Source: a phage
Sequence record: PZ386980.1
Length of the DNA: 64,000 nt
Reading direction: 5' to 3' (one strand)
Shown here: positions 40,770-50,188 of the stretch, piece after piece
How positions within the stretch are numbered: the stretch's first letter is position 1
Layout of the letters: each line of letters begins with the position of its first letter
Program-made: the position numbers and the translations under genes
The notes under the pieces: generated by a model
The model's input: the letters and a program-made list of their open reading frames with translations, nothing else
Databases searched by the model: none
Told to the model about the DNA's origin: nothing

Positions 40770-41243
40770 TTATTTGAACGATTTAACGTACTGAATAGAA
40801 CCCTTACTATTCACAAAGGCAATTTTACCATTTTTATTATACATGGTAGCAGTACGCTGATAACCATAGGTTTGTTTACCAGATTGATAACCAACTAATG
40901 CAAAATTATCTTCACCCATTTTATTCTGTTTAGCGCGAATGCGTTCATGACCATGTGCCATAAGAACCTTAGCATCACCAGTTGCAATGGATCGACGAGT
41001 TTTTTCATCTTCAACTGCATTAACAAAGTCGTCAAATGAATCAAATTTAGCATGAGATTTATTATACAATTTTCCATCTACTGCATAATTATATCCCTGT
41101 ACATCCATCTCAACTTCTGTACCATCATCCAATACAGCAGTAATTTTTTGACCTTTTTTAAATTTCAAAAGATCAGTAAAAGATTCAGCAATAATTTGAG
41201 AATTAATAGCTGCTTCAGTGATAAATTCTTGATATGTTTTCAT
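40770..41243 (-). CDS. internal-protein-like head protein with capsid-targeting N-terminus
   Basis: N-terminus MKTYQEFITEA matches the T4 internal-protein targeting sequence and prohead-protease site (ITE/A). Confidence 0.65.
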   Translation of the reverse strand: MKTYQEFITEAAINSQIIAESFTDLLKFKKGQKITAVLDDGTEVEMDVQGYNYAVDGKLYNKSHAKFDSFDDFVNAVEDEKTRRSIATGDAKVLMAHGHERIRAKQNKMGEDNFALVGYQSGKQTYGYQRTATMYNKNGKIAFVNSKGSIQYVKSFK

Positions 41244-41252
41244 GGGTTTCCT

Positions 41253-41669
41253 TTAAATGTAAATATTTTTACCGTAATACTTATACCAATGTGGTTTCAT
41301 TAAAATTTTTTCATCAAGTCGTTGTTGACTCAATTTAATAGCTGATTTGCATGGATTATAATCATTTTTCCATTCTATTGGAATATCGCTGATGTCAGGA
41401 ACTTCAGTATCTTTTATACTGAACCCGCGTTTTAAGCATTCCGTTATAATGTCTAATTGACGCTTTCGCAAAAATTCTAACTTATCGTAAAAGAACGTAA
41501 CATGACCAGAACCTAAAATAAACTCGGAAGATATTTTAAAATCTTTAACGCGCTTACCGTTTGCCACATGCTTACGAACTATACCAAAAACACGCGGCAA
41601 TTCACGGTATTCTGCGATTAAATGTTGATCAGCAAGTTCAGATACTAAAGTCAAATTAATACGAGTCAT
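41253..41669 (-). CDS. denV: endonuclease V (pyrimidine-dimer DNA glycosylase)
   Basis: 138 aa, [29 protein letters not shown]. Confidence 0.9.
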
Positions 41670-41694
41670 TTTATCCCTCCAAGTAACTGTGAAT

Positions 41695-41724
41695 ATACTA
41701 TCACAATTCTAGGAGAAAGTAAAC
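41695..41724 (-). promoter_or_regulatory. early promoter (GTTTAC -35, TAGTAT -10)
   Basis: 18-nt spacer, upstream of denV. Confidence 0.45.
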
Positions 41725-41728
41725 AACT

Positions 41729-42223
41729 TTATAGATTTTTATACGCGTCCCAAGTGCCAGTTCTAAACGTAGCGATAACTCGTTTTGCGCGGTTAGGTGT
41801 TTGATTATACCATCTACTTTTAGCTAAGTTAACTGCTGCTTCATCCCAGCGTTTTTGTTGAAGCATACGTAAAGAATTAGTAAATCCTGCCACACCGGTT
41901 TCTCCCATCTGGAAAACCATATTAATTAATGCACAGCGACGAACAGCATCAAGAGAATCATAAACTGGTTTTAATTTAGCATTTCTCAAAATTCCACGAA
42001 CAGCAGCATCAACATCCTGATTAAAGAGTTTTTCAGCCTCATCTTTTGTAATTACACCATTGCAATTACGCCCAATAGCTTTATCTAATTCAGATTTAGC
42101 AACACTTAATGATGGACTTTTAGTAAGCAAATGACCAATGCCAATAGTGTAATAGCCTTCTGTGTCTTTATAGATTTTAAGTCTAAGACCTTCATCTATA
42201 CGTAACATTTCAAATATATTCAT
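41729..42223 (-). CDS. e: lysozyme (endolysin)
   Basis: 164 aa, [33 protein letters not shown], as I remember T4 lysozyme. Confidence 0.95.
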
Positions 42224-42249
42224 AATACCTCCTAAGTGTTTATAGAAGG

Positions 42250-42257
42250 TATTTATA
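42250..42257 (-). promoter_or_regulatory. late promoter TATAAATA (minus strand)
   Basis: TATTTATA on plus strand, 27 nt upstream of lysozyme ATG. Confidence 0.5.
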
Positions 42258-42260
42258 AAA

Positions 42261-42716
42261 TTAAAAGAGGTTGTTCATTATTCGGTAAAGTGAAGGACCC
42301 ATCACATATTGCCACTGAGTACGAGGAATAAGAGCAAAAGCATCCATCTCTGGAATCATAACGCCATCTTTATTTTCAAAATAAGACTCGCAATGGCAAT
42401 TTCTGAACATCTCATGCTCTACTGGAATCGTATAATAAAATAACTGTAAGTCTTTATTACTAGAATATTTAAATATACCTAGGTCTTCTAGAAGGTCTGG
42501 ATTATAATTGCTAAAACCGGTCTCTTCTAAGCATTCTCTTTTTGCAGCTTCCAGTGCATTCAAATCAGAACTTTCTACACGCCCCTTTGGAATATCCCAG
42601 CGATGTGCCATCATTCCAGGCTTACGAGAACCAGTAACCCGACCCATAAATAAATCTTTATCTTCTGTCATAAAGATAATACCAGCTGATAGTGTTTTCA
42701 TTTTAATTTCCTGCAT
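42261..42716 (-). CDS. nudE: Nudix hydrolase
   Basis: 151 aa with Nudix box [23 protein letters not shown]. Confidence 0.8.
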
Positions 42717-43186
42717 TCAGTGATAAAGTTATTTAAATTTTGAGTATATTTCTTTTCATCAAAAATCTTTTGTTGTCTGCGTAGCCGCCATGGCATTTCA
42801 ATGAACGTGTACCATATCCCAGATAATATTGCTGCAGTAAAAATATTAACAAGTATGGTTAAAAGAATCCAATCTCCTATTCTGTCCATTGGATTTTTTA
42901 TAAAAAAGTAAAATACGAATGATGTCACAGGAAGACTAATAATATACCACAGAATCATAATTTTATCTGTGAACCAATCAGCGTTCGTTAACTTAGCGCG
43001 ACCATTATGAATACACACGAATTTATCATCTGTTATAATAGATGGCTTAGCTGCTTGATATCCCATTCTAAACTCCCTAATCAACAAATTTTTCATATCT
43101 TCGGAACAACCATTCCAGTCAACTCTATCAACTGAAATGCCATCATCCCCATCATCTAAATCATACCAGCGAGTTTTTAAAATCAT
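42698..43186 (-). CDS. membrane protein (member of tandem trio)
   Basis: 162 aa, two hydrophobic helices, C-terminal ...ECRKLK. Confidence 0.5.
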   Translation of the reverse strand: MILKTRWYDLDDGDDGISVDRVDWNGCSEDMKNLLIREFRMGYQAAKPSIITDDKFVCIHNGRAKLTNADWFTDKIMILWYIISLPVTSFVFYFFIKNPMDRIGDWILLTILVNIFTAAILSGIWYTFIEMPWRLRRQQKIFDEKKYTQNLNNFITECRKLK

Positions 43187-43557
43187 TTAATTTTCCTACA
43201 ATCACTCACAAACTCTTCCATTGATTCTTTTTCAATATAAGACATGTAGCTATTATATTCCTTTAATTGTATTTTGTAATCTTTTTTTCTTTGCCAATTT
43301 ATTTTAAAATTATCATAATGAAAATATAACATGGTACCAAAGAATGAAAATAATGAAATCGCTATAGTATAATGAAGTTCACTCCAAACTTCTATTATAT
43401 CTATTATACCGCTGACGTTACTACGGATGTTTAAAATAAGACAGTCAATTAACAATCCAAAAAGACTACCCGCAAGAGCTGCAGCCAACGCTACAGCAAA
43501 AATTAAAAATGACTCAGGAAGAGAATATTTGACTTTATTTAGTTTTGGCTTTTGCAT
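43183..43557 (-). CDS. membrane protein (member of tandem trio)
   Basis: 124 aa, hydrophobic helices, C-terminal ...DCRKIK. Confidence 0.5.
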   Translation of the reverse strand: MQKPKLNKVKYSLPESFLIFAVALAAALAGSLFGLLIDCLILNIRSNVSGIIDIIEVWSELHYTIAISLFSFFGTMLYFHYDNFKINWQRKKDYKIQLKEYNSYMSYIEKESMEEFVSDCRKIK

Positions 43558-48830: not shown

Positions 48831-48831
48831 G

Positions 48832-48904
48832 CTGGGAATAAAGGACTCGAACCTTTGCATCCTGGAATCAAAATCCAGTGCCTTACCAACTTGGCTAATT
48901 CCCA
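48832..48904 (-). tRNA. tRNA-Gln (anticodon UUG), CCA not encoded
   Basis: Acceptor TGGGAAT/ATTCCCA, anticodon loop UUUUGAU, T-loop TTCGAGT. Confidence 0.75.
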
Positions 48905-49001
48905 ATTATTAACAAAGGCTCTCAAGCAAGAACCCTTGATGATAGAGGGTATTAATCAGTGCGGTATGAGTTAATAATAACAAATAATTCTTAAAGCATA
49001 T

Positions 49002-49289
49002 TTACCATTTATGATAATACATATTTACGATGCACTCAAGACCCAAAGGATTCTTGAAAATATCATATTCAAGAGGACCTTTTTCTGTTTCAATAAAGAA
49101 ATCAAAATTTACTGTATTAAATTTATGGTCTTCCTTCACTAATTTAACTTGAGAAGATGAACGGTCAATGTAAACTTTTTCAACTTCAAAACATGTTAAA
49201 ATACCATAATCATCAATCAAGGCTTTAGCTGCTTCTTGATCATATTTATATCCATTTTCAATGGATGATACTTTTGCATAAAGAATCAT
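49002..49289 (-). CDS. hypothetical protein
   Basis: 95-aa ORF. Confidence 0.5.
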   Translation of the reverse strand: MILYAKVSSIENGYKYDQEAAKALIDDYGILTCFEVEKVYIDRSSSQVKLVKEDHKFNTVNFDFFIETEKGPLEYDIFKNPLGLECIVNMYYHKW

Positions 49290-49292
49290 TAT

Positions 49293-49673
49293 TTACCCTT
49301 CATCAACAATAGTATGAGTGTGGGCATTTACAATTTGCCACCAATCAAAGCGATTAGAACCATACATTGGTTTGTTCTCATTTTCTTTGATAATGTCACG
49401 GAGTTCATCTTCGGTAGCGGCTTTCGCGATTAAATCAGCATATCCACCGCGAGGATAATAATTATCACCTGCAAAAAGTAAAAAGTTTGGTTTAATGTTA
49501 TTGAACTCTTCAAGAGTAATAACTGTTCCACCAGGTTGAACAATATCTACATAACTATATCCTAATTTTTGAGCAGCATCTACTGCTTCAAGCAGGGTAT
49601 CATGAGCCCATCCAATTTGGCAATCTGGCTTTTCAGATGGATTAGCCTGATAATCTGCATATACTTTATACAT
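49293..49673 (-). CDS. hypothetical protein (start at internal Met MYKVYADYQ)
   Basis: ORF 49293-49712 trimmed to avoid overlap with upstream gene. Confidence 0.45.
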   Translation of the reverse strand: MYKVYADYQANPSEKPDCQIGWAHDTLLEAVDAAQKLGYSYVDIVQPGGTVITLEEFNNIKPNFLLFAGDNYYPRGGYADLIAKAATEDELRDIIKENENKPMYGSNRFDWWQIVNAHTHTIVDEG

Positions 49674-49674
49674 T

Positions 49675-49860
49675 CTACTCACCTTTAGAAATTTTATCCA
49701 TAACGATAGCAATTAAACCAATTAAAAATGCTACTACAAGTGAAAATACATTTTCTGCTGTAGTTAATAATCCGCATATAAATCCAACAAACATTGAAAA
49801 ACTAAAAGCGGAAGCAGAAATTGCAATAGCAACATTTCGAATTAATTCACAACGTTTCAT
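49675..49860 (-). CDS. small membrane protein
   Basis: 61 aa, hydrophobic; downstream of early promoter. Confidence 0.5.
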   Translation of the reverse strand: MKRCELIRNVAIAISASAFSFSMFVGFICGLLTTAENVFSLVVAFLIGLIAIVMDKISKGE

Positions 49861-49888
49861 TTTATTCTCCTCAGTAGTTGATAGGGTA

Positions 49889-49918
49889 ATAGTATCACAA
49901 CTAAAACCCTATGTAAAC
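49889..49918 (-). promoter_or_regulatory. early promoter (GTTTAC -35, TACTAT -10)
   Basis: Variant of dispersed promoter repeat. Confidence 0.55.
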
Positions 49919-49930
49919 AACTTTGTGAAA

Positions 49931-50188
49931 TTATTTTAAATCTTCTAATCGTTTCTTCATCTTAGAACCATTTTTAGCGATTTCTCCTGCGTCAGAGCAT
50001 AATGCTAAAAGTGCTTTAACTTTAGTTTGGTCTCCTTTAAAAGACGAAGGATCGACTGCAGCAGCAAGTTCTTTAATACGAGAGAAAAGACGCTCAGCTT
50101 CAGCTAAAGCCATTCCAAGCTTTACTTCCATACCATGAGAAGATTCAGTGATAATAGTTTCTGTAGCAAACTCTTTATAAGTTTTCAT
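49931..50188 (-). CDS. internal protein I-like small head protein
   Basis: 85 aa, N-terminus MKTYKEFATETI fits capsid-targeting sequence; position next to 57B as for T4 ipI. Confidence 0.6.
   Translation of the reverse strand: MKTYKEFATETIITESSHGMEVKLGMALAEAERLFSRIKELAAAVDPSSFKGDQTKVKALLALCSDAGEIAKNGSKMKKRLEDLK

Follow-up and report, generated by a model that had tools for sequence, protein, structure and literature searches.

The middle one of three open reading frames (ORFs) that share the capsid-targeting sequence (CTS) of internal proteins (Ips) in a 64,000-nt stretch of phage DNA (record PZ386980.1; hereafter the window) is best read as a new and widely distributed member of the internal-protein class that lies at a third locus. 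The three ORFs are Ip4 (40770-41243), the middle ORF or middle gene (46267-46740, RB51ORF140) and Ip5 (49931-50188), and every gene of the region, including all three, is on the minus strand. The 11-kb stretch around them is 100% identical to Enterobacteria phages RB51 (FJ839693) and RB68, both Tequatrovirus, and the window corresponds to RB51 genome positions 23752-87751 (window position = record position - 23751). Ip4 and Ip5 are ordinary, already named internal proteins. The initial annotation had picked out the 157-aa protein beside denV as the notable one; that gene, Ip4, is already known, and it is the middle gene that had gone unrecognised.

Three ORFs with one N-terminal tag

The CTS corresponds to the first 10 residues of T4 IPIII, in which residues 4 and 7 serve targeting and residues 8 and 10 serve processing (Mullaney and Black 1996, reviewed in PMC9026906). 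It is cleaved by the prohead protease, and the tag alone brings foreign proteins into the head (PMC9026906; PMC3012670; PMC5694885). The three ORFs carry the N-termini that had been attributed to them. A six-frame scan of the whole window, with the motif placed at the start of frames of at least 30 codons, gave exactly three frames starting with M..Y..F..E, namely these ORFs, and the same three were recovered with stricter or looser forms of the motif (MK.Y..F and MK[TS]Y..F..E). The mean motif count in 100 shuffles of the sequence was 0 to 0.05 with a maximum of 1; that is, three motif starts were found against 0.05 expected.

Alignment with T4 IPI, IPII and IPIII (NC_000866) indicated that M1, K2 and F7 are common to all three RB51 proteins, and the targeting residues Y4 and F7 are present in each, together with E10. 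Position 8 is I in Ip4, L in the middle ORF and A in Ip5. A putative [L/I]-x-E cleavage context is located at or just past residue 10 in all three (cleavage positions are given here by a slash): ITE/A and IAE/S in Ip4, LNE/A twice in the middle ORF, and ATE/T followed by ITE/S in Ip5, so that Ip5, with A8, has the canonical ITE/S at residues 13-15. These sites were assigned by sequence context, and experimental cleavage support is limited to an Ip4 homologue. Once 10-20 residues are taken off, all three proteins have a basic mature form (isoelectric point [pI] 8.8-9.6). The bodies were unrelated, as had been proposed; pairwise BLASTP detected no similarity past the first 14 residues, and the sole significant match was that of the first 14 residues of Ip4 with those of Ip5 (E 6e-4). 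The reading of these ORFs as three CTS genes with unrelated effector bodies, made in the initial annotation, is supported by the motif, by its rarity and by the names that Ip4 and Ip5 already bear.

A fourth ORF of RB51, whose start is a near-perfect match to the CTS, lies outside the window. It encodes gp61.1 (54 aa, MKTYKEFIKEDMVAGDSGGNPENIS..., record positions 17751-17915, minus strand), is located in the primase gene cluster and is annotated as a hypothetical protein; its score against the CTS consensus is 42, above that of Ip5 (38).

The middle gene as a candidate internal protein

The family of the middle gene, PHROG 2280, is listed in PHROG as of unknown function. Homologues were found by tblastn in 512 phage records, from phages of Escherichia, Shigella, Yersinia, Salmonella, Citrobacter and Klebsiella. 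The homologue was labelled “hypothetical protein” in all 60 of the records listed among these 512, and about 64 of 65 named cluster members are likewise hypothetical, with one Klebsiella entry called “internal head protein”. A literature text search with the name RB32ORF132c and the N-terminal strings returned no mention of the gene. It is absent from T4, T2 and PST; Bas36, Bas38 and Bas42 carry it. Two Ip loci have been described in recent papers, the ipI locus beside 57B and the ipII/III locus beside e/denV (PMC12373910); the middle gene is positioned outside both, between rnaC and e.8, and it directly follows the tRNA cluster in every case examined (Tequatrovirus, Mosigvirus, Jiaodavirus and two distant homologues). 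An Ip locus describes where the known members are, as Ip4 and Ip5 are, and is not a mechanistic requirement.

The 10-residue match of the middle ORF, taken alone, would be moderate evidence for a CTS. Against MKTYQEFIAE (BLOSUM62) it scored 30 (z about 4.6), ranking 4 among the 1598 Met-initiated frames of the whole RB51 genome. The argument for the middle ORF is therefore built on conservation of the motif in its family, on its late promoter and on the pattern of indels in its propeptide.

An exhaustive family profile search of 1.8 billion representative proteins yielded only 13 members, and no tag-less copy of the middle protein in another context was found among these 1.8 billion. In an alignment of 11 members, the most distant at 26-32% identity, just eight columns are invariant, M1 and F7 being two of them; L8 is nearly invariant and position 4 is always Y or F. 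The Leu8 codon is TTA in RB51 and CTA in a distant homologue (locus L015), indicating that position 8 is conserved at the protein level. Length variation in the family is limited to the propeptide: the stretch that separates the motif from the start of the mature protein differs by 0-6 residues in length among members and always ends in x-E before A, G, S, Q or L. A targeting propeptide that is removed would be expected to look like this.

The promoter and terminators of the middle gene were compared between phages. The late-promoter octamer TATAAATA occurs 13 times on both strands of the 64 kb, a density at which chance would seldom put one on the right strand at most 60 nt upstream; it starts 36-48 nt upstream of the ATG in four lineages (RB51, RB27, Bas36 and a Klebsiella Jiaodavirus). 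In RB51, the octamer is formed where the terminator repeat (..GGTAT) meets the insert (AAATA..). Alignment with T4 showed that the T4 site holds one terminator hairpin, located after rnaC and ahead of GGTATCTAAGCC, and no gene. In RB51, the T4 hairpin leads into AAATA..., and a Shine-Dalgarno sequence and the ORF come next; the hairpin then recurs, and the sequence continues much as in T4. As T4 has one terminator copy and no gene, the promoter comes in with the cassette. The starts of the two copies of the 36-nt terminator repeat are 559 nt apart, and the hairpins flanking the middle gene are the two strongest terminator predictions in 11.4 kb. The terminator-TATAAATA-gene-terminator layout recurs in RB27, Bas36 Paracelsus and a Klebsiella Jiaodavirus, the last with a different hairpin sequence, and a Mosigvirus has AATAAATA in place of TATAAATA. 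A conserved promoter of this type would fit expression of the middle ORF late in infection, at the time of prohead assembly.

The AlphaFold2 model of the middle protein (pLDDT 75) comprises a disordered propeptide, a three-helix domain (residues 18-71), a Lys/Pro/Ala-rich linker (residues 76-87) and a long helical hairpin (residues 88-154). Conservation in the family lies in the N-terminal domain; Klebsiella and Yersinia versions have a different C-terminal module. The predicted pI of the mature protein is about 9.5. Pfam, NCBIfam and PADLOC scans and profile searches against PDB sequences gave nothing meaningful for it.

Several observations count against reading the middle gene as an internal protein that acts on a host defence. 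Its score of 30 is close to the 28 of the best unrelated N-terminus, that of thymidylate synthase td (MKQYQDLIKD), which is without F7 and E10. Klebsiella homologues carry a motif shortened by one residue (MKFKEFLAE). Of the distant homologues, one is without TATAAATA and overlaps the ORF upstream of it, and another has only GATAAATA. Virion proteomics was found neither for the middle protein nor for Ip5 in RB51. No relatives of the middle protein outside its family were found in the PDB or BFVD, which leaves no hint of a target. The apparent orthologue in Bas37 (bas37_0244, assigned by size and position only) was without phenotype in the one comparison considered; that it is non-essential in E. 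coli K-12 (29 of 34 TA sites hit) counts, on the other hand, in favour of an internal protein. A proteomics supplement for Klebsiella Jiaodavirus was considered as a virion test of the middle protein and set aside, as both of its phages are without a homologue of the gene.

On some of these grounds the N-terminus may not be a working CTS at all, the product being a late cytoplasmic protein whose motif arose by chance or from constraints on translation initiation: MK starts are common, td scores almost as high, relatives deviate in the motif or in the late promoter, and direct virion evidence was not found. We regard this as quite improbable. The residues Y/F4, F7, L8 and the terminal Glu persist over the whole range of divergence and through a synonymous change of the Leu8 codon, and they are as conserved as the core AWKS motif of the protein. 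All indels fall between the motif and the start of the mature protein, with x-E always restored, and the name “internal head protein” was given to the Klebsiella homologue independently. Judged from these features, the middle protein is probably packaged and trimmed.

A packaged middle protein may, alternatively, have a structural or DNA-condensing role in the head, through charge neutralisation or DNA organisation, rather than one against host defence. Its mature form is basic and helical with a Lys/Pro/Ala-rich linker, its apparent Bas37 orthologue was dispensable and had no host-specific phenotype in the above comparison, and about 1000 internal protein molecules are embedded in the DNA of the T4 head (PMC3012670). 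Against this, all four T-even internal proteins of known function (Ip1, Ip2, Ip3 and bas37_0260) are specific restriction inhibitors, the gene is patchily present among close relatives in the manner typical of arms-race accessory genes, and its C-terminal module has been swapped between lineages. We consider a structural or DNA-condensing role unlikely. By analogy with those four proteins, an anti-defence function of the middle protein, in addition to its packaging, is a tentative proposal.

In Bas36 and Bas37, a gene of 187 aa is located between the middle CTS gene and e.8 (bas37_0243; Bas36 counterpart L005:6600-7163), and RB51 is without it. It was scored as essential in the HIDEN-SEQ supplement (1 of 48 TA sites hit), which is odd for a gene in an accessory region; it may have an antitoxin or immunity-like function.

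Ip4, Ip5 and their surroundings

The 157-aa protein beside denV had been proposed to differ from IPII and IPIII and possibly to be a distinct injected effector. The difference was borne out; its novelty was not, since RB51 already has it annotated as Ip4 (“similar to T2, RB70 Ip4”). It matched Pfam DUF7412 at 9e-96 and phrog_3155, “internal virion protein”, at 1e-101, and its family has a mean column identity of 68%, with the CTS kept and Glu at position 20 invariant. The 85-aa gene is annotated as Ip5 in RB51 and matched phrog_3499, “internal head protein”, at 4e-50. Both families have reportedly been named since 1994, in the nomenclature of Repoila et al. The coordinates of the three genes and of the elements around them are given in Table 1.

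Table 1 Features of the three CTS genes and their flanking elements in window coordinates.
Feature	Position	Strand	Remarks
Ip4 gene	40770..41243	-	157 aa, DUF7412; CTS at residues 1-10, MKTYQEFITE; second site IAE/S at residues 18-20
CTS-coding codons 1-10 of Ip4	41214..41243	-	
TATAAATA late promoter upstream of e	42250..42257	-	possible late source of an e-denV-Ip4 transcript
Downstream 36-nt repeat copy	46227..46262	-	end of the middle-gene cassette; 92% identical; stem 46236-46259
Middle CTS gene (RB51ORF140 / RB32ORF132c)	46267..46740	-	157 aa, PHROG 2280; candidate unrecognised internal protein
Predicted propeptide of the middle gene	46696..46740	-	MKSYTQFLNE/AVLNE/A; two L-N-E cleavage contexts
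TATAAATA late promoter of the middle gene	46781..46788	-	start 48 nt upstream of the ATG
Upstream 36-nt repeat copy	46786..46821	-	intrinsic terminator of the tRNA-rnaD-rnaC unit; stem 46795-46818
Downstream 69-nt repeat copy	49878..49946	-	83% identical; overlaps the Ip5 stop codon; serves the next gene, tRNA.4
Ip5 gene	49931..50188	-	85 aa; ipI locus, between 57B and tRNA.4; N-terminus MKTYKEFATE/TIITE/S
Upstream 69-nt repeat copy flanking Ip5	50209..50277	-	early-type promoter TTTACA-17-TACTAT (50220-50248) and stem-loop

Packaging and trimming of the Ip4 family are supported by experimental data from Klebsiella phages ValerieMcCarty03 and ValerieMcCarty04, in which liquid chromatography-tandem mass spectrometry of CsCl-purified virions assigned 66 spectra per phage to an “internal virion protein” (PMC13119998). 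This protein is 70% identical to RB51 Ip4. In Supplementary Data S2 for ValerieMcCarty04, two spectra correspond to the semi-tryptic peptide SRLATVGVMTESVGSNLLK, preceded by E and followed by F, which starts directly past the CTS residue Glu10, and no spectrum in the ValerieMcCarty04 data covers residues 1-10 (PMC13119998). The scores of this peptide are modest (-10lgP 18-21) and other non-tryptic peptides occur in the same data set, which tempers the evidence for trimming.

The sites of TATAAATA nearest to Ip4 and Ip5 are those upstream of e (42250) and inside gene 1 (51315), respectively. The promoter directly at Ip5 is of the early type. In Mosigvirus phages, Ip5 homologues with about 51% identity adjoin the lysozyme gene e, so one internal-protein family is found at the ipI locus in some genera and at the e locus in others.

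The junctions of Ip4 (window 41253-41275, at the 3' end of denV, and 40740-40769) bear traces of its insertion. Over the leader and the first 23 coding nt, Ip4 is near-identical to T4 ipII and ipIII. In RB51, the T4 ipII leader, AAAAATATTTACATTTAAAGGAAAC, joins Ip4 to denV and supplies the last codons and the stop of denV; RB51 denV ends in ...KNIYI before its stop codon and T4 denV in ...KAIYA. The sequence 3' of Ip4 resumes exactly at the post-denV continuation of T4, and the insertion point of the Ip4 cassette is exactly the boundary of denV and GGGAACAACCTGGACC, the motif found behind denV in T4. The denV/Ip4/GGGAACAACCTGGACC junction is a visible recombination scar.

Such traces raise the possibility that the shared N-termini reflect only a recent spread of one 5' leader by recombination between hypervariable loci, the three genes having no selective tie to each other. 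Besides the near-identity of the Ip4 leader to those of ipII and ipIII and its contribution to denV, Ip5 and the middle gene are located within direct regulatory repeats (69 nt and 36 nt), of the kind reported for cassette shuffling (PMC2839356, PMC4122927). Recombination of this sort accounts for the movement of cassettes, but not for retention of the tag: in the middle gene, the DNA that encodes the CTS has departed from that of the others (20 of 30 nt), yet the key residues are kept, and the packaging function of the tag was shown experimentally for T4 (PMC9026906). As a full explanation of the shared N-termini it is therefore very improbable; as a mechanism of spread, recombination is compatible with three functional CTS genes.

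The genes of the region are transcribed in the order gene 1, 57A, 57B, Ip5, tRNA.4-.2, the tRNA cluster with a SegB-like gene, rnaD and rnaC, and after rnaC RB51ORF140, e.8 to e.2, nudE, e, denV, Ip4 and vs.8. Two further ORFs in the list, 46767-47052 and 47565-48912, run over rnaC, rnaD and the tRNAs and are spurious. An Rfam scan of 46000-49100 reported tRNAs alone; rnaC and rnaD are not in its library. The sequence at 47757-47831 was called tRNA-Met (anticodon CAT) by ARAGORN and is tRNA-Ile in the RB51 record, by analogy with T4 tRNA-Ile, which has a modified CAU anticodon; this is an annotation discrepancy. The SegB-like GIY-YIG homing endonuclease gene within the cluster (48010-48660) differs in position from T4 segB and is annotated as truncated in RB51. 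This gene and the differing tRNA sets of RB51, T4, T2, PST and the Bas phages indicate that the tRNA cluster is itself being reshuffled.

At the other end of the region, an unusually G+C-rich spacer of 141 nt (40629-40770) separates Ip4 from the annotated start of vs.8. An in-frame upstream ATG at 40676 would lengthen vs.8 to 196 aa, and T4 vs.8 has 219 aa. The annotated RB51 start may be wrong, or the 5' part of vs.8 may be degenerate.

Proposed mechanism and comparison with known systems

We propose that RB51 carries three cassettes, in each of which an N-terminal CTS of about 10-15 residues is fused to an unrelated small basic protein. Late in infection, the CTS would dock the protein on the scaffolding core of the prohead, and the prohead protease gp21 would cut after the Glu of [L/I]-x-E to free the mature protein inside the head. 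The mature protein would then be ejected with the DNA into the next host, in which it would most likely block a specific host defence; by analogy with Ip1, Ip2, Ip3 and Ip6, this may be a Type IV (modification-dependent) restriction enzyme. The third cassette would be a gene driven by a late promoter and bounded by terminators, inserted at the end of the tRNA/rnaC operon.

As a whole, this account of the three cassettes, from the CTS through packaging, trimming and ejection to a likely anti-defence role, appears to us a likely one. For the middle protein and RB51 Ip5 we infer packaging and cleavage, and we likewise infer ejection and an anti-defence target. A more specific version is put forward with reserve: the 46267-46740 family might constitute an unrecognised internal protein at a third Ip locus, which is made late only, from its own promoter, is packaged and ejected and neutralises a host defence outside those addressed by Ip1-6.

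Injected internal proteins act ahead of any phage gene expression, and since each disarms a specific Type IV restriction enzyme, as recent work indicates, they shape the host range of T-even phages, therapeutic phages included. The middle gene is a concrete candidate for the next inhibitor-target pair. What is new here is the proposal of its family, which occurs in about 500 sequenced Tevenvirinae, as an internal-protein candidate outside the known loci, and this suggests that annotation pipelines should seek the CTS tag beyond the two classical loci. If this holds, and with gp61.1 also considered, the injected arsenal of T-even phages may exceed the two-locus picture.

The three RB51 proteins resemble T4 IPI-III in their N-terminal CTS (MKTYQEFIAE in IPII and IPIII, MKTFKEF.. 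in IPI) with putative [L/I]-x-E processing, in their small, basic, non-essential and mutually unrelated bodies, and in the hypervariable regions near e/denV and 57B. Unlike them, none of the three bodies is homologous to IPI, IPII or IPIII; comparison of the RB51 proteins with these three and with the 77-aa Ip6-type protein of phage Paracelsus (Bas36) detected no similarity past the CTS. T4 has ipIII and ipII between e and denV, whereas RB51 has nothing there and Ip4 after denV, and RB51 has a third CTS gene at the tRNA terminator, a site at which T4 is without a gene.

As to the Ip4 and Ip5 families of T2, T6, RB70, PST and other T-even phages, RB51 40770-41243 and 49931-50188 are members and do not differ from them. 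PST has IpIV and IpV annotated at the same positions as RB51 Ip4 and Ip5, T2 has both in the same places, and the 77-aa IpVI (Ip6) of PST is absent from RB51. Among proteins of known activity, Ip1, Ip2 and Ip3 are inhibitors, each of a different GmrSD enzyme (PMC12373910), and the CTS-bearing bas37_0260 inhibits McrBC (10.1101/2025.11.20.689424). By size and position, bas37_0260 is the counterpart of PST IpVI; its identification as an Ip5 orthologue was rejected, as it is the neighbouring 77-aa gene.

The promoter-early stem-loop (PeSL) cassettes of T4-type phages, short repeated elements at the borders of variable ORFs, have been proposed to serve modular shuffling (PMC2839356, Arbiol et al. 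2010; PMC4122927, Comeau et al. 2014). Ip5 is like them in being flanked by the 69-nt repeat with an early-type promoter and stem-loop. The middle gene is unlike them: its borders are repeats of an intrinsic terminator, its late promoter arises at the junction, and it has no early promoter/stem-loop unit.

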